35,906 nt of DNA from a virus (lineage: Duplodnaviria; Caudoviricetes), in the IMG/VR virus record IMGVR_UViG_3300028388_002774, positions 1 to 35,906 of that record. One strand, 5' to 3'. This document shows, piece by piece, positions 1,562-35,894 of this stretch (position 1 is its first letter; each line of letters begins with the position of its first letter). Under the pieces are notes generated by a model. It saw only the letters and a list, made by a program, of their open reading frames with translations. It was not told the origin of the DNA and made no database searches. Made by a program: the position numbers and the translations under genes.

Positions 1562-1940
1562 GGCGTTCACCCAACTCGATAGCCTTGTTGATCGTTTCCT
1601 GGACGGCATCTGATTCGTAACACTTCATGCCAGCGTACTCTTCGTCATCCATGATCAAAGCGTATTCTCCGGCATAGACAGACAATATCGCCATGGTCTG
1701 GACCACTTCACGAAATTGTTTCTTCAGCTCCAGGTAGTCGACTTTATCCATATCGGTCGCTGTGCGATTCCGAGACAGCTTTTCCTGATCGGCCTTAGCC
1801 GTCTTCAGTACCGACTCAAGGATATGCGCCGCATGAGAAAAGGATCTCCGCTGCGCAGGCGAATACGACAATTTCTGAGCGCGATCCCTTTGATCGTCGA
1901 TATGAGTTTCGATGACTGTTATCGTGTTCTGCATCTTCAC
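1548..1940 (-). CDS. hypothetical phage protein
   Basis: GTGA overlap with the upstream stop; 130-aa ORF in a tight operon. Confidence 0.65.
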   Translation of the reverse strand: MKMQNTITVIETHIDDQRDRAQKLSYSPAQRRSFSHAAHILESVLKTAKADQEKLSRNRTATDMDKVDYLELKKQFREVVQTMAILSVYAGEYALIMDDEEYAGMKCYESDAVQETINKAIELGERHGSQ

Positions 1941-2431
1941 GCCCCGCTTAACACGCAGCTTCGAAAGTATTCACCAGTTACCCAGAACATAGCCGGATCA
2001 TCATTAGGCTGAGGATTTAAGCCCCAACCGACAATATTACCCGGCTTTGTATTCTCCAAAATATCCTGGCCATCGCCGACACCAGCACCAGAAAGAACCG
2101 CATCCAGATCGCCGCCAATAACTCCGCTGCCAAAGCGGTTAAGGGAAAGCTCAAAGGTAATCTGCTGACGAATACGCCGAGCAATGAAATTCCACTGACC
2201 AGCGCTGCCGCCGGTCATGCAATTGTAAGGGCCGTGCTCTTCGAGCAGGAAATGAGCTGACTGGATTGCGCCTAGAATGAAGTAATCGCACTCATCCAGA
2301 TCGAAGCCATCTCGCTGAGCGCACAGCTCGGACAGATCACTCACAGTAATCGACTTCGAATGCGCGCCAGCTTGGACGGTTGATGCAACTGCAAAAATCA
2401 GCAGTGTGATAATCAGGTTTGAAATTTTCAT
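1937..2431 (-). CDS. exported protein resembling the Rap1a/Tai immunity-protein family, with a Gly/Asp-rich loop insertion
   Basis: GGAG RBS before MKISNL; signal peptide ending VQA; T..DL.ELC...C..FILG pattern and C-terminal PA...C, which I associate with Rap1a-like proteins. Confidence 0.55.
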   Translation of the reverse strand: MKISNLIITLLIFAVASTVQAGAHSKSITVSDLSELCAQRDGFDLDECDYFILGAIQSAHFLLEEHGPYNCMTGGSAGQWNFIARRIRQQITFELSLNRFGSGVIGGDLDAVLSGAGVGDGQDILENTKPGNIVGWGLNPQPNDDPAMFWVTGEYFRSCVLSGA

Positions 2432-2473: not shown

Positions 2474-2869
2474 TCAGCAGTGTAGTGGTTTGTCAACTGC
2501 TTTTTGGCAGCACGTTTGTTTTGCCTTCACCCCGCCCTTGTGAACGTGGTGGCCAACGATTTCATCGGACGGCGGCATGCCAGCGGCTACCGCCATCTCT
2601 TCGCACCGGGCGCAGACTATAAAGCCTTCCGGCGGCTCAGCCAGGAACTCGAAGATATCACGGCCATTGGCGCGACCGCCGCAATAGTAATCGACCGCCA
2701 TGTGTGCGCGCCCTTGACTGTACAGGATCCCCACCATCATTGGTCGATGAATCAACACTCCGCGCCGGTTAAGGACAAACGGCAAACAACTCGACCAGTG
2801 CCTTTTGCGAAGATAATTCGGGTTTATCCAGCCAGATTCAGGGACGATCTTCAGTGGCAGCTTAATCAT
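2474..2869 (-). CDS. hypothetical Cys/His-rich phage protein
   Basis: ATG 2869 overlaps the upstream stop; contains CARC, YYCGG and HHVH, possibly metal-binding. Confidence 0.65.
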   Translation of the reverse strand: MIKLPLKIVPESGWINPNYLRKRHWSSCLPFVLNRRGVLIHRPMMVGILYSQGRAHMAVDYYCGGRANGRDIFEFLAEPPEGFIVCARCEEMAVAAGMPPSDEIVGHHVHKGGVKAKQTCCQKAVDKPLHC

Positions 2870-3323
2870 CGCGCTCACCACATCCACCGGCCGCTTCAAA
2901 CAAGCGCCACGGCTTCCAGCCTTCAGGGCAATGGAATCCCCAGGACCGCTCCCAGGATCCAGTCATGAATAACGTCCAGGCTGGCTGGCCATTGATCAAT
3001 TCCAGGCGATGCGCTGACTGGGCATCCCGGTAAACGATGTCACCGGCATGCAACACCCGACTACCGTCAGGCAAAATCTCACGAATACTGCCGCGCAAGA
3101 TGATGCTGCAGGACTCCCAGGGATGATCGTGCAGCGCGCGGTCGTCATCACTGTGCAGGATGTGATGGAGATAGACATGACCTGCCTGGGTTTCATTGTC
3201 CCTCAGGATGTACCACCGGCGCATATACGGATCACCCGGGGTGCCGCCGATCTGCTGATCTGGCTCTCGGTTTGCATAAACCCGCTGGAGCATGTTCAGC
3301 ATGATTTCGGTCTGATTGATCAT
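2862..3323 (-). CDS. cupin-fold protein
   Basis: LHDHPW..CSIILRG..RE and GD..YR...AHRLEL...AWTLFMTG cupin motifs; ATGA overlap with the upstream gene. Confidence 0.75.
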   Translation of the reverse strand: MINQTEIMLNMLQRVYANREPDQQIGGTPGDPYMRRWYILRDNETQAGHVYLHHILHSDDDRALHDHPWESCSIILRGSIREILPDGSRVLHAGDIVYRDAQSAHRLELINGQPAWTLFMTGSWERSWGFHCPEGWKPWRLFEAAGGCGERDD

Positions 3324-3925
3324 GACGCCCTCCCCAGCTCGCGCTGCGCTTCCTCCCAAGCGACCAATACAGCATTAAATTCTTCCTCGGTGCCGCCGTA
3401 ATCAGGATGCGCCTGCTTCCGTCTTGACAGATACCGGCTGCGCGCTTCATTGGGATCATCACCACTGTAACCCAATACCGAGCGCCAACTTCCCTCGGAA
3501 GGTCCGGGCAGTGCCGTGAACCCGGTAAACGTCCGGTTCAGGATCTCACCACCGCCCCAGCGCTCGATGCCGCGCATGGCTTCGAGGGTTTTGCCGATGG
3601 CGTGAAGGTTATCTTCGATGCGGGTGTACTTATCCAGTGCGATCACGCGCTGCTCATCACCATCCTTCCACCAGACCGCGATACCCTGATCTTCCGGTGC
3701 CTTCTGGTTGCTGTACGGCAAACCATCCTGGCGCAGCTTCAGATCACTGCTGATGATCACGCTCCAGTTCGGAATACCCATCATGCGAAGCTGTTCCAGT
3801 ACAGCGCGAGTTGCACGGCCCAGCGTGACGTTCTGGCCGTTACGGCCGAAGCTGCTGCGGCGGCGGACTTTCGTTCTCTTCCAGCCCTGGGGCCAGCAGA
3901 GTGGGCTGCTCGTTATGCTGTCCAT
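3320..3925 (-). CDS. phage protein with a C-terminal DnaJ J-domain
   Basis: WRSVLG...Y..RRKQAHPDYGGTEEEF J-domain with HPD motif; N-terminal WPQGWKRT. Confidence 0.8.
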   Translation of the reverse strand: MDSITSSPLCWPQGWKRTKVRRRSSFGRNGQNVTLGRATRAVLEQLRMMGIPNWSVIISSDLKLRQDGLPYSNQKAPEDQGIAVWWKDGDEQRVIALDKYTRIEDNLHAIGKTLEAMRGIERWGGGEILNRTFTGFTALPGPSEGSWRSVLGYSGDDPNEARSRYLSRRKQAHPDYGGTEEEFNAVLVAWEEAQRELGRAS

Positions 3926-5467: not shown

Positions 5468-5782
5468 TTAGTCGTCGTATTCGTCATCAAGCCATACGTC
5501 GGGCGGCTCCCCAACCTGAGTGTCGGCAACCGGCGCCGCTTCAGGGTCAGCTTTGCTGGTCTTTAGATCAGCATCGGATGAAACATCCAGGTCATTACTC
5601 TCGGCAACCCAGGCGCGCAGGCTATCGATGTGATAGCGAACTGACTTCTTGCCGATCCGGCGGAACTTCGGTGCTTTGAGACCAGACAGCTGCCCGGTTG
5701 ATCTGGCGGTTTTCAGCGTTACCGGGCTGAACCCCAGATACTCAGCAGCCTCTGCTGTCGTGTACAACTCTTTTTCTGCCAT
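5468..5782 (-). CDS. helix-turn-helix DNA-binding protein (excisionase/AlpA-like) with an acidic tail
   Basis: LYTTAEAAEYLGFSPVTL...PKFRRIGKKSVRY...LRAW; AGGAG RBS. Confidence 0.8.
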   Translation of the reverse strand: MAEKELYTTAEAAEYLGFSPVTLKTARSTGQLSGLKAPKFRRIGKKSVRYHIDSLRAWVAESNDLDVSSDADLKTSKADPEAAPVADTQVGEPPDVWLDDEYDD

Positions 5783-5810
5783 TAGTTTTCTCCTGCCTTA
5801 GACGCAGTGA

Positions 5811-5839
5811 AAGCTATAGCAAGATTTTATCGTTGTAAA
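5811..5839 (-). promoter_or_regulatory. leftward sigma70 promoter
   Basis: TTTACA-17 nt-TAGCTT on the minus strand. Confidence 0.55.
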
Positions 5840-5850
5840 GGAAAAAAGGT

Positions 5851-5879
5851 TTGACAAGGTAGTTGGCGGTATTTATCTT
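5851..5879 (+). promoter_or_regulatory. rightward sigma70 promoter
   Basis: TTGACA-17 nt-TATCTT. Confidence 0.7.
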
Positions 5880-5893
5880 CATTCACCGAAGCG

Positions 5894-5918
5894 AAAAAAA
5901 CCCGGCGCTTGGCCGGGT
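5894..5918 (-). terminator. terminator-like hairpin in the bet leader, U-tract on the minus strand
   Basis: A7-CCCGGC gcttg GCCGGG-T. Confidence 0.5.
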
Positions 5919-5929
5919 AAATAACCCCG

Positions 5930-6823
5930 ATGAAGGAGTTCAAGATGAGTTCTGAGAATAACACTGCCTCTGCTGTCGTACAATGGGCGCAAAATAACCC
6001 TGTACTGGCTGATCGAGGTATTGATCAAGCTATCTGGAATGCTCTTAAAGCCTCAATTTTCCCTGGCGCCAAAGATGATTCAATCATTATGGCCTGGGAC
6101 TATTGCGCTGCCCGTAAAATGGACATTCTGATGAAGCCAGTCCATCTGGTGCCGATGTTTGTGACCGACAAACAAACCGGCGAAAAAGGCATGCGTGATG
6201 TGGTTATGCCAGGGATTGGAATGTATCGAATCCAGGCAGATCGATCTGGCGATTATGCAGGTGCTGATGCCCCTATATTTGGTAACGACATTACGCTCAA
6301 TTTAGATGGCGTATCAATAACAGTGCCTGAGTTTTGCACCTTTACTGTCTATAAGCTTGTTAAAAATCAGCGCGTTGCATACTCGGCCACTGAATATTGG
6401 GAAGAGAATTATGCGACAGCAGGTCGAGATACCCTGAAGCCAAATACCATGTGGTTGAAACGCAAACGCGGACAATTGGTTAAGTGTGCTGAGGCCCAGG
6501 CACTGCGTCGCGCATGGCCTGAAATTGGTCAGGATGCAACAGCCGAAGAAATGGAAGGCAAGTCTTATGAAATGAAGACTATCAACCCTATTGGCGTCGA
6601 AAGCAGTGGCGAAGATAGTGGTGAATCTGGCCTTAAAGATTTCCCTGAAAAAATCTTCAACCAACGAGTTGAAGGCTGGGCTGAAGGTATCAAGAACGGC
6701 GATATCTCTGTCGATCAGATTGAGACCTTTGCCGAAAACAAGGGTTACGCCCTAACCAAAGACCAGCGTAATAAGCTGGAAAACCCAACCCCGATTGATG
6801 GTGACACCAATGAAACTGCTTGA
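5930..6823 (+). CDS. bet: phage single-strand annealing protein Bet (RecT/Red-beta family)
   Basis: KPVHLVPM, MPGIGMYRIQADRSGDYAG and MWLKRKRGQLVKCAEAQALRRAWPE motifs; adjacent exonuclease; the start may be ATG 5945 after AAGGAG. Confidence 0.9.
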   Translation: MKEFKMSSENNTASAVVQWAQNNPVLADRGIDQAIWNALKASIFPGAKDDSIIMAWDYCAARKMDILMKPVHLVPMFVTDKQTGEKGMRDVVMPGIGMYRIQADRSGDYAGADAPIFGNDITLNLDGVSITVPEFCTFTVYKLVKNQRVAYSATEYWEENYATAGRDTLKPNTMWLKRKRGQLVKCAEAQALRRAWPEIGQDATAEEMEGKSYEMKTINPIGVESSGEDSGESGLKDFPEKIFNQRVEGWAEGIKNGDISVDQIETFAENKGYALTKDQRNKLENPTPIDGDTNETA

Positions 6824-8798: not shown

Positions 8799-8994
8799 AA
8801 GCCCTGGCCGCGTAGCGCTCAACACCTGGCAGAGGAATCCGTCTCGAACGGTAATGTGGGGCGCGGGCTGACAGGATCGAGGCTTTGATTGCTTCACCTC
8901 GTTTCTGGCGGCTGTAATCTGCAAGTAAAGGTTTTAACAGCCTTCGATACCGGTGGCCCGCCGGAGCGAAAAAGGGCAGCCGCTTCTATGAGGC

Positions 8995-9191
8995 GGCACT
9001 ATAGAGTGTCCTGACTTAGTATCGGTTTAGATTCTAAGAAAACGAAAACCGGCTCTCGCATGAGCGTAAGACGATGGGTGTGAGCTTGCTGGACAAAATA
9101 CTGGACCGCTTGAATTTTAAGCCTAACGGGAAACGTCCACTTCAGCACCTCCGGTTAAGACCGCAAGAACGGCAGGATACTCTATAGTGCC
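8995..9191 (+). ncRNA. candidate structured non-coding RNA of unknown family
   Basis: 19-nt arms 8995-9013 and 9173-9191 pair fully (18 Watson-Crick pairs plus one G-U on the + strand) and enclose several internal hairpins; no ORF. Confidence 0.55.
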
Positions 9192-9324
9192 ACCCTCGAA
9201 CGAGTAGCGCCTACGGGCGCTGAGTGCAAGCACCATGGTGGTATAGCGGACTATTCCGCGACCGGGCCAGCCAGCGGAGCAATACCTGGCTGGAGCTAAT
9301 TAAACCTTGATCGAGGAACTACAC

Positions 9325-11785: not shown

Positions 11786-11928
11786 TCATGACCATAGAGA
11801 GCTTTGTTAAAGAAATCCGAGAATTTCAAACACCTGGCAGTGATGAACACGCATTATTCAATGCCGCTGCTGACGAAATCGAACGCCTCACCGCCCAGCA
11901 GCAGGGAGGCGATCATGGCACTGACTAA
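11782..11928 (+). CDS. small hypothetical protein (48 aa)
   Basis: ATGA overlap with the ninG stop; MIMTIESFVKEIRE...AADEIERLTAQQQGGDHGTD. Confidence 0.6.
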   Translation: MIMTIESFVKEIREFQTPGSDEHALFNAAADEIERLTAQQQGGDHGTD

Positions 11929-12097
11929 AAATCAGCGCGCCGAATTGCGCGAAATGTTCGGCGGCCGCTGCGCCTATTGCGGTTGTGAATTACCGGAAAA
12001 GGGCTGGCATGCCGATCACATTGAGCCGGTTCGGCGCGAGACAATCGTCGTGCGTGAAAACGGGGCTTTTAAAGGGTTTAAGAGGTTTTCTATTTTG
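11915..12097 (+). pseudogene. truncated HNH endonuclease, in frame with the next ORF
   Basis: FGGRCAYCG.EL...WHADHIEP is present but the downstream N..P.C..CN half is missing; similarity stops before the repeat at 12098. Confidence 0.65.
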
Positions 12098-12118
12098 AGC
12101 AGCAGGGAGGCGAATAGT

Positions 12119-12313
12119 ATGGACAGCATTCGTGAAAGTCAGATAGAGAACATGCGCAAGAAACTGAAACGCGCCGACGTTCTCATACGGAACGCACCAA
12201 ACGAGATATTGCTCCTGGATGCATGCCGTTACCGTGGCGCTATTCTTGAGCAATTACGTAAGCTGGGAGCCGACGAACAGCAGCAGGGAGGCGACCATGC
12301 AAACAATTCCTGA
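12119..12313 (+). CDS. small hypothetical protein (64 aa)
   Basis: own GGAGG RBS from the repeat; ends QQQGGDHANNS. Confidence 0.6.
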   Translation: MDSIRESQIENMRKKLKRADVLIRNAPNEILLLDACRYRGAILEQLRKLGADEQQQGGDHANNS

Positions 12314-12661: not shown

Positions 12662-12953
12662 GATCATAAAATATAGTGCTTGGCTGAGTGGCCTGAAGCA
12701 CGCCGAAGAGATCGTAAGAACTGAAGGCGCTACAACTGGTCTGGAATACATCACTGAACGGCATTCTGCTCGGTACACCGGATTCTCATGTGGCGCCATG
12801 GATTATTTGCTGACTCCAGCTTTCTGGCATAAAGCAGATGCCGAACAAAAAGAGATTGCTCTTAACTTGGCACTATTCGGATTTAGCCCAGTCCCGCCAA
12901 GCGATATCACGCTCACGGAGAAACCGCATGATCTCCCGGAGCCGCGCCGCTGA
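12654..12953 (+). CDS. hypothetical protein (99 aa), last gene of the rightward block
   Basis: GGAG RBS from the partial repeat; 3' end overlaps the convergent spanin gene. Confidence 0.55.
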   Translation: MAEIIKYSAWLSGLKHAEEIVRTEGATTGLEYITERHSARYTGFSCGAMDYLLTPAFWHKADAEQKEIALNLALFGFSPVPPSDITLTEKPHDLPEPRR

Positions 12954-13175
12954 TTCGGCATCCAAAGCAACGGCAGCTGCCGGATCGTCGGGCGATATGA
13001 ACTTAGGCAGTGCGCCCGGCGAATATGGCTCAGCCAGCCACTCAGGCGGCTCAGGCTTGACCGGATAAGGCACCTTAACTTCCACCGTCTCGGTGCGAAT
13101 AATTGGCTCAACCGGCTTACTGGCGCAGCCGGCCAGGCCAACCAATACGACGATCAAAACAATGATTCGAGCCAT
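12873..13175 (-). CDS. outer-membrane lipoprotein, o-spanin (Rz1-like)
   Basis: signal peptide with LAGC lipobox, Pro-rich segment, last gene of the lysis cassette. Confidence 0.75.
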   Translation of the reverse strand: MARIIVLIVVLVGLAGCASKPVEPIIRTETVEVKVPYPVKPEPPEWLAEPYSPGALPKFISPDDPAAAVALDAESAARLREIMRFLRERDIAWRDWAKSE

Positions 13176-17860: not shown

Positions 17861-20800
17861 CTATCGCTCTGGGCCAAAAATGGCCTGTTTTGCTATTTTA
17901 CCAGCGCTATCGCCTTCTTCGATACCCTTCCAGGTGCCAAATACTGTGCGATTAAACTGAGTTGACGGAAGGCCAGTGGCTAGACCAATAACTTCAATAA
18001 CTGATTTCAATGCGGTTTTATCCGCCTCGCCCTGCTGCATCTGCTTGACCATCTGCCCGACCTTACTGATCAGGGCTGTACCCTGCGGCCCGGAGTAGTC
18101 GAAGCCACTCACGGCGCCGCTGAACTGGGCTGACAGCGGGTTCATCGACAACAGGAATGACAGCTGCTCACGGATCGCTCGATCCCATAATGGCTGCTCG
18201 TCGTCGTCACCAGCAACAAAGTCACCCAGCAGCGCAGTCATGATTGCCGGCAACGACAGCGCCACCATGGTATTGATTGCGTGATCGACGACTGTGATCC
18301 GGCCCAGTTTCATCTCGCCTTTGCTTTGCTGGTACAGCGAGTTGGTAGTCATCATGTACGTGAGGAAGTTGGTAAACAGGCGCTGCCAGGCGCCGCCACG
18401 CATTGACTCAGCGGTATCGACCACCGAGCCACCGCCCTGGGCATCTCGAACAGCCTGATCGGCCAGGTTTATGGCCATATCCTCGGCAACGCCTTTCTCA
18501 ATCTGGTAGTCATAGGTCGACAGCCAAAGCGGAGCATCGACGGTATAGAACTGCATTTTCTGGATCGGCACCATGGACAGCTCGGTCAGCTTGGTCAAGC
18601 CGCCCCGGCGTCGGATCTTCTGGGTAATCCGGTTGATCGCAACGCTCATGACTTTTTCACGCTGCTGCATGTACTTCGATTTTTCTTTGATCTTGTCGGT
18701 GTACTCAACCGGCGACATTGAGAATTTACCGTAACCGGTCAACAGCCGGCGAGTACCCATGCCATTGAGGCGCGCGCGAACGAGGCTGTTTGTGATACCG
18801 AAAGGCTGCAGAATCACGGTTCTGATCGAGAAACCAAGCATAGCCAGGGTGGCATTGTTCCGCGCCCACTGAACCTGGCGGTCCATGATTGAGCGCACCG
18901 GGTCGGCACCCTCTTTGATCTCGCGCACCATATTCACCAGCGACTTGTAAATGTGATCGCCGAAATTATCCTGGATACCGGCCTTGATCCGGCTATCGCT
19001 CAGAATGCGGCCGACGTCGTAAAGCGCGCGGTCGTGGGTTGTTGAATGGATAACATCGGTTAAATGACCAAACACAACCTGAGTAACATCCGTCTTGATC
19101 GCCCGGTTCACTTTGGTCATGCGCTGCTTGTTTGATCCAAGGTTTCGGCGGGCGCCCAGGGACTGAACGACCGCCTCAGAATCCTTGCGCAGCTGATTCT
19201 GCTCAGCCTTCACTGATTCGATGGGATCGTATTGAATCGGGAAATAGCCGCCGGTTACTTTGCCGTACTTCGTCATGAATGGCTCAGGCTCAACCTGGTC
19301 CGGCGTAAAGCCAAACATATCGCGGTGCAGGTCAAAGGCTGGCTTGCGATAGGTGTCCAGGTACGCCCACATCGCTTCAGCGAAGTCGACATCCTTCTGT
19401 TCGATGTGGCTGTCAAACAGGCTCATCACTTCCGCTTCGGTAACATTGAAGCCATCCAGAACACGCTGGCGATTCTGTTTATTACCCCAGTTCAGGAAGA
19501 TCGAGATGACGCCCTGCTTGGTGATCCGGCGACCGCCAGGGTACTGCCCGGGCAGATACTCATCCCACTGGGCCAGCTCTTTTTTCGAGTAGGCTGAAAA
19601 AATCTCTTCGAGATCGCGGTTGGCTTTGTCAAGCATCAGCGTTTCTTCAGCGGCCGCATCCTGAAGTGGCTGGCCGATCAGCTTCCAGGCGTCGCCGCCA
19701 TCTTCATACCCATCAAGCATGCGGATCAGTGAGCTTGGCGTCCGGCTCATGTCCAGCATCTCTTTGACTTTGGCTTTGGTGCGCTCACCCTTCGGCACAT
19801 TGCTGCCGATGGTTTTGACTTTCGGGTTGTTGGCGTTCTTTTCAAAAGCGCTTTCAAGCGCATCGACCCACTCATCCAGCTGGCGCTGATCCTTCTGCGT
19901 CAGCAGATGGTTTTTCAGCTGAGCCAGATGGTAGACCGACTGCAGCATATCGTTGACTTCAGCAATCTGCTCAGGCGTCAAATCGCGGTAATTCACGCGG
20001 CGAGTGGTGGCCATCATCTCTTCGGTGACGCCAAATTTCGGGCTTAGACGCTGCTCATCGTCTGAGATCGATTCCTCGCGCGCTGCCTTCTCGGCTTCGG
20101 TCATACCTTCGCCGCTGTGCTTGGGATCGCCGGCGCCGGCCTGGTCCATCTGGGCGTTGATCCAGTCGGTCATGGACTGGCGGCGATCCAGTTCAGCATT
20201 GGTTACCTGGCGGATCTCCAGCCAACCAAGAATCGAGTTGACTTGCTCCAGGTACGAATCGCCGGCGCGCTGCAGCGTCTTCAGTCGATTGCCTCTCATC
20301 AGGCCCCGGCCAAACTTATAAAACTTCCCGGCCGCATCCGTTGCCTGGCGCGCCTCACGGTACAGGTAATGCTGGCGCAGTGCTCGATCCTGCTGGATGG
20401 CTGATTCCTTCAGGTCGCCTTTCTCAGCGGCACGGATGGCGGCGGTACGCGCGGTACGCTCTTGACGCTCATAAACATGCGGTTTGATGTTTTTCAGCGG
20501 CATGGCAGCAATGGCCTGGCGCGCTGACTCGCGATAGATGGTGCGCTTGACCGTGCGTCGACCGATCTTCGCGTTCACATACTCCAGTTCTTTATGCAGC
20601 AAATCAGACTGCTTGCCGTTGTGAATCGCCTTCTCTGCCAGCTGGGCCAGGCTGCCATCGGTCATGCTGTCACCATGACGCTGGCGCATCCGAGTTTCAG
20701 CCTCGGCCTTGATGTACGCCTCTCGGTCGGCCTTGTTACGGCTGTTCATCAGATCTTCGACCAGCGTCATACCGTCCTGATAGCCGAACATTTGGGCCAG

Positions 20801-20978
20801 CATATTCGGGTGCATGCCGTCTTCCGCTGTCATGCGGCTGAAAGCCCTGGCGTAGCTCTTAAAATTCTGCTGGATGAAGGCGCTTTGCATCTTCAGGCCA
20901 GGGTAATCTTCGAGTGGACGGTCGCCGGTAAGTGCATCGCGAAGACGGTAAACGCGGGAGGCGTCGACCTCAGCACGA
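17861..20978 (-). CDS. large internal virion/DNA-ejection protein, C-terminal part (no credible start of its own; continues the upstream ORF after a +1 frame change)
   Basis: >1000-aa helical ORF in the T7 gp16-equivalent position; GGYFPIQYDP; the nominal N-terminal residues look like off-frame read-through. Confidence 0.75.
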
Positions 20979-23900
20979 AAGCTCTTCCATGACCTGCGAG
21001 GTGGCCTGGCGCATCGTCTCTTCTTCGGCCTCAGCCAACATGCGCTCATACTCCAGCGCCTCTTCCATGGTCAGGCCCAGCGCCTGGGAGAAACGCGGAC
21101 CCATGCCGGCTTCGGCCCGGGCGATCTCGATCTCATCTTTGGTAGCCAGCATCCGATCCATGACGTCGCGCACTTCATCAGACAACTCGACGCCGGCCAG
21201 GTTGTTGGCGCGGAAAGGTCCGGTGATCGCGCGATAGATCTCGGTCAGCCAGATACGGAACCGGTTAAAGATCGGCTGCAGCTCAGGTGTCGGCGCCTTG
21301 CCTTCCATCGAATACGTCTCGAACCCGGAAGCAAACATCTCATGGACGTCGGTGTCGTTCTGGGCGCCCTGGCTCTGCGCCCAGCGCTCAATGGTGTCCA
21401 GTTCATCACGGATCTGAGGTGACTGGTCGGCGTATGAGCGCATCACTTCGAGGAAAAAGTGAGACGATTCGTGCACGAATGTGGAGTAATTAGCACGTTT
21501 CGTGAACGTGATGCGGTTATTCGTGCGGTTGAAGTAGCCGCGCACGATGTTTTCGTCGGTGTCGCCTTGCTCTAAGATGTTCGGAGATTCCGGGTCAAAG
21601 GTGCCACGGTTTCCGATGGCACTTTTTATCTGATCTGGAGAAAATACAGCCCACTGATCTGATGGTGTCATTCCTTGAGACTCAACCACTCCAATTATTT
21701 TCAAGCTGTCATATCCGCCAGCTTTAGCAGCATCCACAGCAGCTATCATTTCCTCTTGCAGGAAATAACCCTGATCGTCGATGACGCTTGAAAAATCTAT
21801 CTCCATTGGGTTTTTAGCGGCAATATAAACAGGCATTACACGCGAATTATCTTCAGTGGCAGCAAAGAGGTTTGCAACATCAGGATCTTCAGCAAAATAA
21901 GCGGCGTCAGCTGTTATTCCGTCCATGTCAAAAACATCAAAATCCTCTCCTGTTCCGTGATACACAACCAGCGGATCACCATTCTCATCGACCACCTTGC
22001 TGTCACCAAACCATTCTTTAAATGCCTCAGTCTCCGTGACCGGAACATCTTCTTGAGTAAGAACATCATCTGGGTTTGCATTGGGAATACTCAGCGCTTC
22101 ACGGATCTGGTCGTTACTCATCTCGGCGAGATCAAGGCCGGATTGATCAAGAAGCTGCTGGAGCTGATCCATATCCATGCGAGTATTCAGAAGATCCTGG
22201 TTCTCCATACCTGAGCGATATGCTGGGTTTCCGGCCAGATCCGCATCGATCAGCGCCAGCAAGTCATCGATGTTTCGTTCCTGAAGATAACCTTCCTCGA
22301 CGGCGCGCTCTGCCAGCTCATCCAAGGTTTTTCCGGTGTTCTGGCGAATCAGGTTATCGGCATCGCGCGCAGCAAGTTCACCGCCGTCATCGATGGCACC
22401 GCCTTCCTTACGAATGAACTGGGTGATCGAGTCCCCGAATATTTCCTGATCAGTTGGCACCTGGCCTTCGCGTAGCATGTCCAGAGTCGCATCCATTCGA
22501 TCCAGGCGACGAGCTTGCGCGCGCAATTCTGGATCTACTTCATATCCCATGCTTGGCGCAGCGCGGCGGAATATCTCAATAGGCGACTCAGAAACGCCGC
22601 CCTTTCGGCTCATGGTTCTGAAAAATGCCTCCCAGTAGAGCGCATCCATTTCGGCCTGGTCCTGGTCGACACCCATCGCCAGGCGCATACCCAGAACCTC
22701 ATCGAATACCTCGCGGCTCTCAGACTGCTCCTGCTCTATCATGCCGCGCAGAACTTCGATCTCTGACTGGACATCGGCATCAGCCTGTTGCGCCGGTGAC
22801 AGCGCATCGATGTCGGATGTCATATATTGCTGGGCAGCGCGCGCGGCGCCGTTCTGAACAAGCTCAGGGAGATCTGCCAGCGGGATCTTGATCTTGCTGC
22901 CGTTTCGCTTGGCATCATCAACCTGATCAAGGATGGATCGCATAGCCGGCGTATCGAGAGCGGCCGGATCATTTACGCTCTGAAATAGAACGTCAGCGCC
23001 TTCTGGGTCGACATAAAGCGTGTCGCTGCCAGTTTCATCACCCAGAGCTTCCAGGTATTGGCGCGCCAGATCCCGATTGCGGCCGGCCAGGCGAGAGATC
23101 TCGATGGCCGACATGGTTTCATTGATCTTCGCCGCATCACCCTCAGACGCCAGGCGGCGACGGCCAGCACCAGTGGCGATGATGATCCCACGCAGGATAC
23201 CACCGGCAATACCGCCAAGCTGGGCGTTTGGTGCGACGTCCTGGAAGATCTCGGCGTCAGGGTTGTAATAGGCGTACTCGATCAGGTTCTGGCCAGCAGC
23301 CTCGACGCCCTCCATAAAACCTTCAACACCGGCAGTGCTGGTAATATCGATGATCTTGCGAGCCATGCGATGCTTTACTGCTTGCGGAACCTTGTCGATG
23401 ATTCGTTCGATACCCAGCCGCTCAACAACCATTTGGAACGCGGCACCGCTAAGGATTGCCGCATCGGTATTATTATTTTCACCAAAAACATCAAGGTCGC
23501 GCTGGCGCTCCGCCTGCTCATCGGCGCCCATGCCGAACAGCAATGTGCCTCCGGTTGTCGGGCTTAGCGCAGTAACCAGAGCAAGGGAGGCTGTACCACT
23601 AACGGCGCCAGCAATGTCGGCCACATAGCTTTCTTGATCAGGATCAATATCAAATACCTCATTATATTCGTTGATCAACGTTGAGGCCGCCCCGGCCTGA
23701 TAGAAAGGGTTAGTGGCAGTTGCCAGCGTCCGCCAGCCAGGGCTGAGATCCGAGACGTCTGAATAAATAATATCGTCAGCCGATTCTGGCAGCACCGCAT
23801 CAGCACCACGCAGCACCATGCGGGTTAAAGCGTTAGCACTCTCGTTCACCCCGGACAGGCCAGCGGCAAGGTATTGGCCAGGCGCACCCAGAATCGCCTT

Positions 23901-24266
23901 GCCGACGCCGACCGACTTCCTCCAAGCGTTTTCAATAGCGCTAAGGTTCTCGATATCGTCGTTCGCCTGCTTTGCGTTTTCTGGATCCGATAGGAACTCA
24001 GCGGCAGTCGGCGACTCATTCAGCAAACGCAGAACGTCAACACCCTCGAACGTGACCGCCTCGCGCGCCTTGTCCGGGTTGCGCTGCACATAGCCGCGCG
24101 GCAGCCCGGACTGCTCAGACAACTTAACCTGCTCGGCCTCTTGGTCTGGGTTGGCGCCCATGGAAATGGAGAGACTGTTTCTTAGCCGGCGCTCACGTTC
24201 ACTGGATGCCCCGGTCAATCCGCCGCTGCGAAAATACTCTTCTGCTACCGCTGAAAACTCATTCAT
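20970..24266 (-). CDS. large internal virion/DNA-ejection polyvalent protein, N-terminal part, with ART-PolyVal-like and HExxH domains
   Basis: Gly/Ala-rich hydrophobic segments; FKEWFGDSKVVDENG.PLVVYHGT...QIKSAIGNRGTFD domain; STFVHESSHFF. Confidence 0.8.
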   Translation of the reverse strand: MNEFSAVAEEYFRSGGLTGASSERERRLRNSLSISMGANPDQEAEQVKLSEQSGLPRGYVQRNPDKAREAVTFEGVDVLRLLNESPTAAEFLSDPENAKQANDDIENLSAIENAWRKSVGVGKAILGAPGQYLAAGLSGVNESANALTRMVLRGADAVLPESADDIIYSDVSDLSPGWRTLATATNPFYQAGAASTLINEYNEVFDIDPDQESYVADIAGAVSGTASLALVTALSPTTGGTLLFGMGADEQAERQRDLDVFGENNNTDAAILSGAAFQMVVERLGIERIIDKVPQAVKHRMARKIIDITSTAGVEGFMEGVEAAGQNLIEYAYYNPDAEIFQDVAPNAQLGGIAGGILRGIIIATGAGRRRLASEGDAAKINETMSAIEISRLAGRNRDLARQYLEALGDETGSDTLYVDPEGADVLFQSVNDPAALDTPAMRSILDQVDDAKRNGSKIKIPLADLPELVQNGAARAAQQYMTSDIDALSPAQQADADVQSEIEVLRGMIEQEQSESREVFDEVLGMRLAMGVDQDQAEMDALYWEAFFRTMSRKGGVSESPIEIFRRAAPSMGYEVDPELRAQARRLDRMDATLDMLREGQVPTDQEIFGDSITQFIRKEGGAIDDGGELAARDADNLIRQNTGKTLDELAERAVEEGYLQERNIDDLLALIDADLAGNPAYRSGMENQDLLNTRMDMDQLQQLLDQSGLDLAEMSNDQIREALSIPNANPDDVLTQEDVPVTETEAFKEWFGDSKVVDENGDPLVVYHGTGEDFDVFDMDGITADAAYFAEDPDVANLFAATEDNSRVMPVYIAAKNPMEIDFSSVIDDQGYFLQEEMIAAVDAAKAGGYDSLKIIGVVESQGMTPSDQWAVFSPDQIKSAIGNRGTFDPESPNILEQGDTDENIVRGYFNRTNNRITFTKRANYSTFVHESSHFFLEVMRSYADQSPQIRDELDTIERWAQSQGAQNDTDVHEMFASGFETYSMEGKAPTPELQPIFNRFRIWLTEIYRAITGPFRANNLAGVELSDEVRDVMDRMLATKDEIEIARAEAGMGPRFSQALGLTMEEALEYERMLAEAEEETMRQATSQVMEELSC

Positions 24267-26032
24267 TCGACTGGAACCCTGTCTTTAAGCTGGATGATGG
24301 AGATGACGTCACGCAATGTTATCTGTCGTGTACCAATAGCACCATCCTCGATGGCTCGCTGCTGAAGCTCTTCCAGGGCATTAAGGGCTTCACGAACGCG
24401 CGGACTGGTCAGATCGATATCGTACTTCATGACCAGATTGGCATCGTCCGGCGTCAGCGGAATACCCAGATCATCAAAGCCCTGCTGCAGTGATCGCTGC
24501 AGGTCGATATTGAGGTCGTAGAACGGAACCTCTCTGTCAAACCAGAAGGCACCACCATCACGGCTGGTATATTCCTCGGTCATGGAATCCAGGAGGTTCC
24601 GGCGATCTTCGCGGGTCATGTCCTGGGTCAGGCCATTGGCATACATACCCAGCAGGATATTCCGGCGCTCATTCCATACGCGACGATCATTGACTTGGGA
24701 AGTTTTGCTTCCGGTAGGCTCGCTACCCACGGTAGCTTCAATCCAATCATCGAATTGGCGCTGAGCATTGGCATCGAGCAGACCGGCCGAAGATCCCGCA
24801 TCTTTCTTCCAGATCGCGTTATTGAATTCCTGGAAATCGGTCTGACTGAACATGGTGTTGGCGTTGGCCATCAGGAAAGTGCGCGCCGCATCCCACTCGC
24901 CCTGAGCGATCAGGCCGTTCATGTAGTCGTATGCCTGGTAATTGGTCCGAACGTCGCTGTCGGTACTCAGCGCAGAGCGGATAGCCTTCTGGTGACCAGA
25001 ATCCATGGCGCCCCAGACGTCAGGGTATCGATTCTGAAATTCAGAAAGCGTCATGTCGCGCTGGTTTACCAGTACGTCATAAGCCTGTTCGTGTGCCTCA
25101 TACGAAGCCTCTTGCTCGGCCAGCCGCTCCTGCTGCAAGTCGTAAGTGATCTGATCACGAAGCAGGTTCAGTTTCTCAGTATCGTCGCCAGCCATCTCCC
25201 GCGCGCGCTCCATGCGTTCAGATCGGCTGCCACCTTCAATGCGAAGCTCTTGAGCGCGTGATTCAACCCAGTCAACGTTTTCGCGCTGGGTGATTTTCTC
25301 CTGAATGTCGTCGTGGAATGTGCCATTGATCTTGTCTTTATTGGCCTCAAAGTATTCACCGGCCAGCACCGGATCTCTTTCAAGCAGGTTATTCACCGCC
25401 TCCATGTGCATGGTGGTCAGTGATTCGTCCAGTTTCTGTGCGCGCTCTTCCGGTGACCAGCCGTTTCGCTGACCCAGGGTGTTGATCGTGGCTTCGATCT
25501 GCATCGCCTGATCTTCGTTATTGAAGTAACGCAGAGCGCCATCGGTCTGAGCCTGATTGATGATCGCCTCATCCTGGCCATTCAGCCAGTCGACGCGCTC
25601 ACGGCTGGAATGGACCGCCATTTGGTTCAACTCAGAGGTGATCGAGTCATCCATCAACTGGGCGAACGCCTGCTGCTGACGCGGACTCAGGCCATCCATG
25701 TAACGAGACTTGACCTCTTCCAGCGTGGCGCCCATGTCGTTGTACGACTCATAAGCATCCTGGCCGCGCCGGTTGTAATAGGCATCGTCACCCAGGTACA
25801 GCAGCTCGTTCATCTCGCGATGGCTTTCTGTCAGGCGCTGCTTAACCCGCGCCTGCTCATCTTCGCGGCGCATTTTGATGGCATTCTGAGAGACCGCCTG
25901 CCCGATCTGGCTGACCACCTGGCCAGACTGAGCGCCGAAATCATTCGGCGTAAAGCTTGGCTGGCGAGTCGGCGCATTAAGGCGCTGCTGGCCTACCTGC
26001 TGTCTGTTATAAACGTTCTTAACCGTTGGCAT
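24263..26032 (-). CDS. internal virion (ejection) protein, gp15-equivalent position
   Basis: start re-assigned to MPTVKN, which overlaps the upstream gene; helical and Q/E-rich; position in the operon. Confidence 0.7.
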   Translation of the reverse strand: MPTVKNVYNRQQVGQQRLNAPTRQPSFTPNDFGAQSGQVVSQIGQAVSQNAIKMRREDEQARVKQRLTESHREMNELLYLGDDAYYNRRGQDAYESYNDMGATLEEVKSRYMDGLSPRQQQAFAQLMDDSITSELNQMAVHSSRERVDWLNGQDEAIINQAQTDGALRYFNNEDQAMQIEATINTLGQRNGWSPEERAQKLDESLTTMHMEAVNNLLERDPVLAGEYFEANKDKINGTFHDDIQEKITQRENVDWVESRAQELRIEGGSRSERMERAREMAGDDTEKLNLLRDQITYDLQQERLAEQEASYEAHEQAYDVLVNQRDMTLSEFQNRYPDVWGAMDSGHQKAIRSALSTDSDVRTNYQAYDYMNGLIAQGEWDAARTFLMANANTMFSQTDFQEFNNAIWKKDAGSSAGLLDANAQRQFDDWIEATVGSEPTGSKTSQVNDRRVWNERRNILLGMYANGLTQDMTREDRRNLLDSMTEEYTSRDGGAFWFDREVPFYDLNIDLQRSLQQGFDDLGIPLTPDDANLVMKYDIDLTSPRVREALNALEELQQRAIEDGAIGTRQITLRDVISIIQLKDRVPVE

Positions 26033-26501
26033 AGTTAAACCAATTCCCCGCAACCTGCGCTGCACCACCCAATATCGTCGCATTGGCACTGGTGCCGCCA
26101 CCGGCCGCTGCTGCGTCCGCGTTTAGTAGGTCAATGTCCGCCTGCTTATTCAGCTGCCAAGCTTCCATCTGAGCATTGCGTCGAATAGTCAGCGCATCCA
26201 GTTCACCGTAGAAATCGGTATCGTCCAGGATCCGAGAATTCGAGCCGGTCAGGGCCTGGCCACCGGCCAGCATACGTGCTTTTTGATCGCTCTTTATGGC
26301 TGCTACATCCATCCTTTGCTGAGCTTCCGCAGTGTCTCCACGCTGCAAAGCGTCGCGCGCCATGATGCGACGAACAGCAGCGTTTTCGCGGAGCACTCGC
26401 GCATTGGCTCGGCCAGACTTGCGTTGCGCACTCGCCTGCTTCCCGCTGCCCATTAGCTGCAGGCCGCTGCCTACAATCATTGCCCCAGTGACCGGGTCCA
26501 T
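26019..26501 (-). CDS. virion core protein, T7 gp14-like
   Basis: MDPVTGAMIVGSGL...DALQRG...ELDALTIRRNA pattern; GGAG RBS. Confidence 0.75.
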   Translation of the reverse strand: MDPVTGAMIVGSGLQLMGSGKQASAQRKSGRANARVLRENAAVRRIMARDALQRGDTAEAQQRMDVAAIKSDQKARMLAGGQALTGSNSRILDDTDFYGELDALTIRRNAQMEAWQLNKQADIDLLNADAAAAGGGTSANATILGGAAQVAGNWFNYANG

Positions 26502-33090: not shown

Positions 33091-34794
33091 TTAAGTCAAA
33101 CTATCGAGTACGCCCTCCAGGGCGTTGCCGTCACCAACCTGGGTATCGCTCAGCGTCTTGGCTGACTCGGCTGCGGCCGCCATGCGTTCACGTTCTTGCT
33201 GCGCCTGGATGGCTGCAGCGCGCTGCTCGCGAATGGCGGCAGCCTGGTCATTGGTTCTGATAATCGACGGCGGCGCACCTTTGGCGCGGGCATACTCATC
33301 GATCAGCTCATCAGTATTCAGCTTATCCAGGGCGTCCGGGCTGAACTGCGACAGGTTGGTCACGAACGCCGTGGTGATGTCCATGCTGTCGGTGCTGACG
33401 GCTTTCTGGGCTTTGGCCAGGACAGACACGTACTCGACTCGCAGCTTGACGTTCTCCAGTTCAGGCGGCGGCGGCGGGATCAAGCCCTTGCGGTTCATGA
33501 TCTCGAACACGCGGTCGATGATCAGGTCCAGCGCTTCGTCGTTGATGCGCTCCAGCACCGGGCCAAGCATCAGCAGCTTCTCTTCTTTGCGCTCGATAAT
33601 CTCCGTGGCGGTGATCTGGGCGCGATCCATCTGCTGCAGCATCAGGAACAGATCGGCATAGAAGGCGCGTTCGATACGGCCTTCCTTCTCCTGAATATCC
33701 AAACGCAGGTGGTCGATGTTCGGATTGACGTTATAGACCGGTGACAGGCCAGGCTTGCCGCTCATGGCCATATTCGGAACAAAGGTAACGCCGCCGGCAA
33801 TCAGGTCGACGCCGGCGTTCTGGAGGTACTGGTCACCCACCAGCGGCGGATTGTGTTGCTTCTCGATGGCCGTGGCCTTGTCCAGCTCTTCAACCTGCAG
33901 CGACTTATTGGACCCCATCGCATTGAAGGCTGGATAGCTGGTGGCATAGATATCCTTGCCGAGCACGGTCCAGCGTGGCGCGAAGAATGGCTGCTCATTG
34001 AAGCCAGACCACTGAAGCATCGGCGATCCACCGGTGTTTTCCTGGTCCGCTTCCATATAAGCAGAGCGCCAAGGCATCTCAGATGACGCCGGTGAGTTCG
34101 GGTTTCGGCCTTCGTTGCGCTCAATGACATGGAGGATATTGATCAGACTCTCCATCTCATTGTTGTCGTACATCTTCCGGTATGACTGACTCAGGTTCTC
34201 CAGGCCAAATTTGGTGACGGCTTCGCGCACCGTCATGTTGAATTCGTTGTAGAACCGGTCGACGCGGCCGTTGCCATCCTGAGCCAGCTTGTAGCTGCCG
34301 ATCTCATACGTCTCGAATCGGACGACATCCTCAAAGTCTTCGTAGCAGGTCACCGGGCACTGACCAAACGTCCCCATGTGCATATACATCTGGTACATCA
34401 CGCGGTAGAAGTTGGAGCCGGCCAGCACTGCCATCATTCGTTCTTCGACAACGTTCAGCCATTCCTTGATCGGCTGAGAGTTCATCATATCCTTGTCCGG
34501 CGTCGCCAACTCGAACCACTTGCGCGCTGGGCTGGTAATGCCAGCCATCATCCCGGAGGCCAGAATATTGGCCGAACTCATTGCGGTTTCGTTCATCAGG
34601 AATTCGTTGCGCAAGCGCTTGCGGCGGTCTGACGGCGGATGGGATAGCAAGGATCGAGGCGTGTAACCCAGAACGAAATCAGCAGAGTCGATCCACTCAT
34701 CGATGTATTCGTTGCGAATATCATCCAGCCGCTTGTTGCGAGCCATTATCTGCTTTTTGACTTCCTGCATCCGATCTCTGTTGACCATGATCAC
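33091..34794 (-). CDS. portal protein (head-to-tail connector, T7 gp8/Bbp21 type)
   Basis: LASGMMAGITSPARKWFEL, SNFY, FYADLFLML and TATEI.ERKEEKLLMLGPVLER motifs. Confidence 0.95.
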   Translation of the reverse strand: MIMVNRDRMQEVKKQIMARNKRLDDIRNEYIDEWIDSADFVLGYTPRSLLSHPPSDRRKRLRNEFLMNETAMSSANILASGMMAGITSPARKWFELATPDKDMMNSQPIKEWLNVVEERMMAVLAGSNFYRVMYQMYMHMGTFGQCPVTCYEDFEDVVRFETYEIGSYKLAQDGNGRVDRFYNEFNMTVREAVTKFGLENLSQSYRKMYDNNEMESLINILHVIERNEGRNPNSPASSEMPWRSAYMEADQENTGGSPMLQWSGFNEQPFFAPRWTVLGKDIYATSYPAFNAMGSNKSLQVEELDKATAIEKQHNPPLVGDQYLQNAGVDLIAGGVTFVPNMAMSGKPGLSPVYNVNPNIDHLRLDIQEKEGRIERAFYADLFLMLQQMDRAQITATEIIERKEEKLLMLGPVLERINDEALDLIIDRVFEIMNRKGLIPPPPPELENVKLRVEYVSVLAKAQKAVSTDSMDITTAFVTNLSQFSPDALDKLNTDELIDEYARAKGAPPSIIRTNDQAAAIREQRAAAIQAQQERERMAAAAESAKTLSDTQVGDGNALEGVLDSLT

Positions 34795-35351
34795 GATCCC
34801 AATAGTGTTTTGCCGGTGCTTTCATCACCGATACCGGCGGGGCCGGTGAGGATTGTTGCGCCATAACCGGCACGACGACGACGGCGCTTACTGGCATCGA
34901 CATCAATGGATGCGGCCGCATCGGCATAGGTCACCTGCTCTGGTGCATCGTTGGTGCCGCCGGAATCTGAGCTGTCGGCTGAAGTGCCGCCGCCAGAAGA
35001 GCTTGAGCTTGAGCTGGACGGCCTGGACGAAGGGTCTTTGGCTGGCTCGGTCGGCTGCATTGGGGTTGTGCCCCAATCAGGGAAGGTGCCTTCACCGCCG
35101 CCACTATCAGGGCGATTGCTCGGCTTGGTGGTCTCTAGGATGTCGTCTCCAGCGCCGGCGCCAGCCTGACCCAGGATATCGTCGACAGTTCCACCCAGCG
35201 GGGTATAACCCTGGTCTTGCTGTGTATTTGGCTTTGGCTTGCTGCTGCCACCGCTACCGCCCTTGCCACCACCACCGCCTGATGGCTTGCTAGGCTTGCT
35301 GGGCTTGTTGTTGCCACCGCCACTGCCGTTTCCGCTGCTGCCGCCGGTCAT
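34791..35351 (-). CDS. Gly/Ser-rich virion protein upstream of the portal (T7 gp7.3-like position)
   Basis: C-terminal RRRRRAGYGATILTG...KTLLG, typical of the small pre-portal protein; long low-complexity N-terminal extension. Confidence 0.7.
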   Translation of the reverse strand: MTGGSSGNGSGGGNNKPSKPSKPSGGGGGKGGSGGSSKPKPNTQQDQGYTPLGGTVDDILGQAGAGAGDDILETTKPSNRPDSGGGEGTFPDWGTTPMQPTEPAKDPSSRPSSSSSSSSGGGTSADSSDSGGTNDAPEQVTYADAAASIDVDASKRRRRRAGYGATILTGPAGIGDESTGKTLLGS

Positions 35352-35354
35352 GAT

Positions 35355-35894
35355 TCAGTCTCCGATAGTCTTAGCATATATGGTCGTCACCTTTTGATAG
35401 CGAAGTTTGACCAATAAATTGCTGAAGTCAACTGACGGGGTTACGCCCTGGAATACGGTTTTGACGCCGATGCTGGCCAGGTGATCCTCGATAAACTGGA
35501 TAAACTTGAATCCGGCCAGGCCGCGCCGATAGGGCTTCTCGATGTAGAGCGCATCTTGGTGCCCGCAGAGCGTCCCGTTGCGGTGATTATCTAAAAGCAG
35601 AAATATACTGCCATATCCCACCAACACCTTCGAGTCTTTATCTCTGGCAGTAAATAGAACCATATCGCCGTCTGATTGCGTCTGGTTGTAATGGTCGACA
35701 TCAACCTCAGCCTTGACCGGGCCGCGCACAAAAACGGCCGGCTCGACTGCGGCCAATGCAAAAAATACACGGCGGTATCGATCAATGCGCAGACGGCCAA
35801 CGGGCCAAGTTGCGCCGGAAGTAAGATCGCAACATTCACCCCGATAGAAACTTTCTGAAAGATGCGAGTTATGTGCCGATGCAATAGCATCCAC
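35355..35894 (-). CDS. GNAT-like acetyltransferase; 5' part uncertain
   Basis: LFTARD...LVGY, QDALYIEKPYRRGLAGFKFIQFIE..L...GV motif A; the sequence beyond ~35720 does not look like the usual N-terminus. Confidence 0.65.
   Translation of the reverse strand: MDAIASAHNSHLSESFYRGECCDLTSGATWPVGRLRIDRYRRVFFALAAVEPAVFVRGPVKAEVDVDHYNQTQSDGDMVLFTARDKDSKVLVGYGSIFLLLDNHRNGTLCGHQDALYIEKPYRRGLAGFKFIQFIEDHLASIGVKTVFQGVTPSVDFSNLLVKLRYQKVTTIYAKTIGD

Follow-up and report, generated by a model that had tools for sequence, protein, structure and literature searches.

In phage P22, superinfection exclusion by SieA is aimed at the ejection proteins, and this envelope protein of the phage has been proposed to block DNA injection through the ejection-protein conduit or its host partner (10.1101/2023.08.15.553423). 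In phage T4, Spackle, a small periplasmic early protein, is reported to exclude superinfection by binding a virion protein, the gp5 lysozyme, which it inhibits; the abstract of that work makes no mention of mimicry (PMC7677548). On the virion side, T7 gp7.3 has been described as an ejected protein located in the tail channel, and cellular proteases break down both gp7.3 and gp6.7 once they have been ejected (PMC11784390), and the unstructured middle of gp7.3 tolerates deletions (PMC12798971). A related description exists for gp34 of phage Ar-KM, an assembly wedge of the ejectosome, in a preprint that regards pre-portal ORFs as likely functional orthologs, recognized as short ORFs with a low-complexity centre and basic termini (10.64898/2026.05.18.726046).

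The locus described here encodes a small protein, predicted to be exported, that shares one segment with a pre-portal virion protein and a second one with a giant ejection protein of the same phage. The explanation we tentatively prefer, with somewhat less than even confidence, is that this protein works in the periplasm as a decoy bearing tags from two ejected proteins and would jam the ejection conduit of incoming siblings. Such a decoy would act like SieA or Spackle, outside both families. Unlike SieA, the exported protein is predicted to be soluble in the periplasm and bears two copied segments; unlike the Spackle case, neither a lysozyme nor an SLT domain was detected in the ejection proteins of this phage.

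The window analysed, 35,906 nucleotides, is the whole record of a linear virus contig with an estimated completeness of 82%. Gene content and sequence similarity indicate that it is an epsilon15/Carin1-type podophage, and the closest relative found shows 52% identity in the portal and 64% in the capsid. The main genes under discussion are the following:

1937..2431, minus strand: exported protein of 164 aa with cysteines 37, 48, 71 and 159 and a weak Rap1a-like fold; candidate decoy
2369..2431, minus strand: predicted Sec signal peptide, with a basic N-terminus, a hydrophobic core and a VQA cleavage site
17861..24266, minus strand: giant ejection gene of the gp16-like type, split over two overlapping frames that each match phrog_9880
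20970-24266, minus strand: frame 1 of the giant gene, with LPD22 and ART-PolyVal domains (phrog_9880)
17861-21049, minus strand: frame 2 of the giant gene (phrog_9880)
24263..26501, minus strand: internal virion genes, one at the gp15 position and one of the T7 gp14 family; candidate decoy targets
33091..34794, minus strand: portal (PF12236), 43-44% identical to epsilon15-type portals
34791..35351, minus strand: pre-portal virion protein of the epsilon15 gp3 type, 186 aa, matching phrog_831 at residues 138-186

The minus strand also carries the capsid, adaptor and nozzle genes, and RecT/RecE, NinB and NinG lie on the plus strand. A leftward unit headed by an HTH gene and a DUF1376 replication gene contains the exported-protein gene and is read as an early/middle unit. 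The words "early" and "exported", applied to this protein in the original prediction, derive from this gene position and from the signal peptide, called by eye and with a hydropathy rule. Among the 45 ORFs of the window none matched a terminase, an integrase or a repressor; in particular, there is no repressor at the divergent junction (5782-5930) and no integrase after the recombination block (12953-13154). The layout resembles that of Cobetia phage Carin1, and the stretch 5851-5918 contains a hairpin resembling a terminator together with a strong sigma-70-like site. The exported-protein and pre-portal genes lie on the same minus strand at opposite ends of the contig. If the absent part of the genome holds the terminase, as in relatives, the two would be separated by about 2.5 kb plus about 8 kb of absent sequence, so the distance of 33 kb originally given probably arises only because the record is linear, 82% complete and without a terminase.

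Other features of the window can be recorded here. The pre-portal gene is directly preceded by a GNAT acetyltransferase (35355-35894); near the exported-protein gene lies a cupin similar to a cysteine dioxygenase-like PHROG (2862-3359). A 22-nt sequence occurs three times at 11896-12299 (77-100% identical, spacings of 201 and 181 nt) around an HNH-like ORF, two of the three copies ending at an ATG. A 35-nt inverted repeat with a 133-nt spacer, in a long intergenic stretch (8992-9194), may form a structured RNA.

The starting observation was a 27-aa motif claimed to be common to the exported and the pre-portal proteins, and the translations bear it out, with 16 of 27 residues identical in a gap-free alignment:

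2036..2116, minus strand: motif copy 1, residues 106-132 of the exported protein
35115..35195, minus strand: motif copy 2, residues 53-79 of the pre-portal protein
1994..2119, minus strand: extended shared segment of the exported protein, residues 105-146, similar in length to the surplus of its last cysteine gap
35031-35198, minus strand: extended shared segment of the pre-portal protein, from the BLASTP alignment

Pairwise BLASTP with compositional adjustment gives 33.5 bits (E 4e-7) and extends the match to about 42 aa; the similar WG..P tails noted after the motif fall inside this alignment, which joins residues 105-146 to residues 52-107. Among the 45 ORFs of the window this is the top off-diagonal pair, with E values of 2.5e-5 unmasked and 1.4e-5 after SEG, the runner-up being at 0.021. 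The local score of 93 was never reached in 5,000 global, 5,000 window-10 and 5,000 window-5 shuffles (maxima of 61, 72 and 77), and the similarity withstands low-complexity masking. At the DNA level the two copies agree at 49 of 81 positions, and the same codon is used at 6 of the 16 identical residues, against 6.4 expected from the codon use of the genome. Synonymous sites are therefore saturated, in a protein segment that remains 59% identical, as had been proposed when the conservation was ascribed to the protein level rather than to a recent DNA duplication; both copies are therefore probably under selection. Two short helices are predicted with low confidence in the exported copy. A likeness of the motif to a conserved segment of the gp14 family was also considered and ruled out, since a profile of 123 homologs gave no score.

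The pre-portal protein can be assigned to its family through its C-terminus. The phrog_831 match (E 2.8e-9) comes with both marks of that family, a site upstream of the portal and a conserved C-terminus (RRRR, TILTG, KTLLG), and the last 49 aa also match epsilon15 gp3 and Carin1 gp47 (68-69 aa). The N-terminal extension of about 117 aa is of low complexity and private to this phage. We collected 135 distinct family members from 227 of 261 loci, with a median of about 70 aa and a single one above 186 aa, and 42 further sequences of 54-127 aa from 49 of 73 loci; the motif is absent from all 135 and from all 42. In this phage it thus forms an island of its own within the low-complexity extension, and its insertion-like placement on this side holds as first described. 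In the closest relative the pre-portal protein has only 67 aa, and the motif is therefore not required for ejection in the family. Like T7 gp7.3, Ar-KM gp34 and epsilon15 gp3, the protein comes from a small ORF that immediately precedes the portal, and it shows a low-complexity middle and a basic C-terminal cluster (PMC11784390; 10.64898/2026.05.18.726046), but it is longer than its relatives (186 aa against about 70), its extension and motif are its own, and it has no positive sequence link to T7 gp7.3. We infer from position and architecture that it is gp7.3-like; position, low complexity and basic clusters agree with the type, whereas the predicted high helicity of that type does not (Atlas pLDDT 0.45). 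In three Maridesulfovibrio/Desulfovibrio prophages (L250, L257, L261) two tandem pre-portal paralogs precede the portal, one of which has 159 aa and an N-terminal domain rich in aromatic residues.

The two motif genes are also linked at the DNA level by an exact 16-nt repeat overlooked in the original prediction, one of three repeats of at least 16 nt in the window:

2204..2219, no strand assigned: repeat copy 1, codons 72-76 (MTGGS) of the exported-protein gene
35337..35352, no strand assigned: repeat copy 2, covering the pre-portal start codon

Repeats of at least 15 nt arise in 5 of 1,000 synonymous resamplings and in 1 of 3,000 codon shuffles. This one may be due to chance, to later recombination or to a third copied tag.

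The exported-protein gene has a GGAGA site upstream of its ATG, and its product is an orphan: no homolog appeared in any search of protein sets, contigs or the phage collection, and no match was obtained in Pfam, PHROG, NCBIfam or PDB sequences, known exclusion families included. The closest resemblance found, which is weak both in profile and in fold, is to the Rap1a/Tai4 immunity proteins of T6SS amidases (PF18602; PDB 3ZFI, 6IJE), with which it shares a predicted signal peptide, a four-cysteine pattern and the helical order. Its cysteines 37, 48, 71 and 159 align with those of the Rap1a family, and the gap between the third and the fourth is 88 residues, against 42-49 in 17 of 18 Rap1a-family proteins, an excess of 44 that equals the size of the shared segment. 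Atlas ranks Rap1a clusters first (features 0.87, TM 0.51/0.62), our own profile of 18 members scores 6.8 bits, exceeded by 1 of 500 shuffles, and hhalign gives 13%. A model built from the Rap1a alignment, and hence circular, has a pLDDT of 54 and places Rap1a tied first (Z 5.1, rmsd 3.0, 79 aligned residues); with a single-sequence model Rap1a is not among the fold matches, and Foldseek searches returned nothing at E<=0.001. Neither the whole protein nor its parts match the PF18602 profile (cut-off 27.7 bits), and MAFFT puts the insertion elsewhere than the shared segment. The protein thus differs from Rap1a/Tai4 in falling under every family threshold, in its roughly 44 extra residues and in having no adjacent amidase effector, its neighbours being phage genes without amidase matches. 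A Rap1a-like protein enlarged by an insertion of about 44 residues is a plausible reading. The proposed insertion of the motif into a Rap1a-like loop agrees with the widened cysteine gap, but the name "Rap1a-like" is only a lead.

A second shared segment joins the C-terminus of the exported protein to the N-terminus of the giant ejection protein:

1940..1981, minus strand: C-terminal tail of the exported protein, residues 151-164, with 9 of 14 residues identical to the giant head
24207..24248, minus strand: head tag of the giant ejection protein, residues 7-20, before the LPD22 domain

Taken alone, this match has a BLAST E value of 0.14-0.8. A single one of 20,000 shuffles reached it, and the match ranks first among the 1,980 tail-head pairs in the window. 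Of the 128 own-genome pairs this one alone attained its score of 38, as did 1 of 2,528 cross-genome controls, and the remaining 127 own-genome pairs, from 21 genomes, all stayed below 25; three genomes without a giant protein above 1,000 aa were left out of this count, and the test was framed, and its windows chosen, after the match had been seen. The tail is also compatible with the final helix and cysteine of Rap1a. All BLAST hits of the exported protein at E<1 fall on the pre-portal or the giant ejection ORFs (beyond the motif, three with BLOSUM62, and three with PAM30). Weak likenesses to the giant protein were also seen for residues 85-108 (against residues 957-984 of its C-terminal half, E about 0.1) and 73-98 (against residues 14-39 of its head, E 9.6) of the exported protein (window 2132-2179 and 2138-2215). 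The giant gene itself is split at 20970-21049 into frames of 1,098 and 1,062 aa, consecutive parts of phrog_9880, and is a single ORF of 2,000-3,400 aa in relatives; either an assembly error or a real frameshift accounts for the split. Residues 760-890 of its first frame (21597-21989) form an ART-PolyVal ADP-ribosyltransferase domain (E 1e-24).

Both proteins proved to be confined to this phage in every collection searched. Each retrieved only itself from a set of 5.8 billion proteins (40 and 7,985 candidates), and a two-copy motif profile recovered only the two copies among 1,943 longer candidates; three matches among 1.84 billion representatives were false and inflated by repeats. Viral, metagenome and genome contigs and a phage collection yielded no homolog, a degenerate DNA pattern of the motif hit 15 stretches with no homolog among them, and no sequencing run was matched. 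The motif profile found no match in 64,190 frames from 261 loci, in 14,443 frames from 73 loci or, in a search without a positive control, in 48 whole records. Co-occurrence in relatives thus came out empty, with neither protein nor motif in any of them and both copies known from one genome. We also screened 247 loci (6,052 ORFs) for exported proteins that share segments with their own genome, which gave 47 pairs and 6 after filtering; the only credible one is the exported/pre-portal pair, the rest being repeats or spurious frames. No comparable copy appeared in the 246 related loci or in 23 related phage and prophage sequences (24 screened with this phage), with a crude signal-peptide rule and a crude ORF filter, which may pass over small or antisense morons. 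Rap1a-family morons occur in or beside three related prophages (L273:1498-1944, L280:1429-1785 and L262), one next to the repressor (G019), one directly behind the final ejection gene (G075) and one at the edge of its prophage (G018), and none of the three proteins carries a copied tag. A further candidate from G019 with a head-like peptide turned out to be a spanin-type gene.

Several explanations compete for these matches. Coincidence, or compositional convergence of Gly/Asp-rich stretches, would fit a Gly-rich motif from a single genome, and rare matches are to be expected when very many windows are compared; we hold it to be very improbable, given an E value of about 1e-5 that survives masking and compositional adjustment, none of 15,000 shuffles at that score, no equivalent among the ORFs of the 247 loci and two more links between the same genes or module. 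A recombination relic deserves more attention, although we deem it unlikely: a piece of one gene would have entered the other and persisted for structural or unrelated reasons, and the exported protein would be a Rap1a/Tai4-like moron, perhaps an inhibitor of cell-wall hydrolases like Spackle. The exact repeat joining the same two genes, rare under both nulls, the recombination genes RecT/RecE, NinB and NinG, and the ordinary untagged Rap1a morons of relatives all speak for such an origin. However, 59% identity with saturated synonymous sites in a low-complexity extension implies purifying selection on both copies, the tail-to-head match is left unexplained, and the hydrolase-inhibitor form finds no lysozyme or SLT domain to act upon in the ejection proteins of this phage.

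Two further readings give the motif a host partner. It may bind, in both proteins, a host envelope component needed for entry, which the exported copy would occupy and so exclude superinfection. This was the form of mimicry first proposed, and it agrees with the periplasm as the place where both copies would meet, with a lineage-specific motif suited to a host-specific partner and with the alternative model of the SieA work, occlusion of a host component (10.1101/2023.08.15.553423). We nevertheless regard it as improbable: the idea of mimicry has gained a second match, and a second tag, taken from another ejected protein, is explained more simply if it mimics sites where phage proteins dock on each other, which makes the incoming conduit a somewhat likelier partner than the host envelope. 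Alternatively, the motif could inhibit or saturate a periplasmic host defence or protease, with a first dose from the virion sustained by the exported protein. The proteolysis of T7 gp7.3 and gp6.7 after ejection (PMC11784390), the early/middle position of the gene and the apparent lack of an integrase are in keeping with this role, but it leaves the giant-protein tag without explanation, and we find it quite improbable.

Our preferred reading, the periplasmic decoy with two tags, draws on what is seen in one genome: two matching segments, synonymous sites that are saturated and a lineage-specific extension. The SieA precedent and the Rap1a-family morons of related prophages speak in its favour. 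The exported protein would reach the periplasm as a soluble product, its tags carried by a Rap1a-like, disulfide-bonded scaffold. By analogy with T7 gp7.3, the pre-portal protein would be packed in the tail channel and ejected first, and both tag sources, this protein and the giant one, are probably delivered into the envelope. The two segments would be docking tags for the assembly of the trans-envelope conduit, and the exported copy would compete for the docking sites on the ejected proteins of a superinfecting virion. Against this stand the single genome, the lack of such a copy in the related loci and prophages screened, the short pre-portal protein of the closest relative, the absence of integrase and repressor from the window, the post hoc framing of the tail test and the alternative fit of the tail to Rap1a. 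A more specific version, which we consider rather doubtful, is a multivalent decoy that joins tags of the first-out tail-channel factor and of the last-out giant protein on a scaffold of the T6SS-immunity type, poisons the sibling conduit at two steps and, through its copied segments, maps the docking sites of the ejectosome. A literature search that covered few subscription journals found no published exclusion based on mimicry or decoys, the nearest reports being SieA, a vesicle study and reviews, and nothing on phage Rap1a proteins that described a tag-bearing decoy.

The field has yet to explain how the ejection proteins of podophages meet on their way across the envelope and what role gp7.3-type proteins take on once ejected. 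Although its value is limited by the single genome, the two-tag decoy, if true, would represent superinfection exclusion by self-mimicry, in which the decoy itself pinpoints the peptides that matter.
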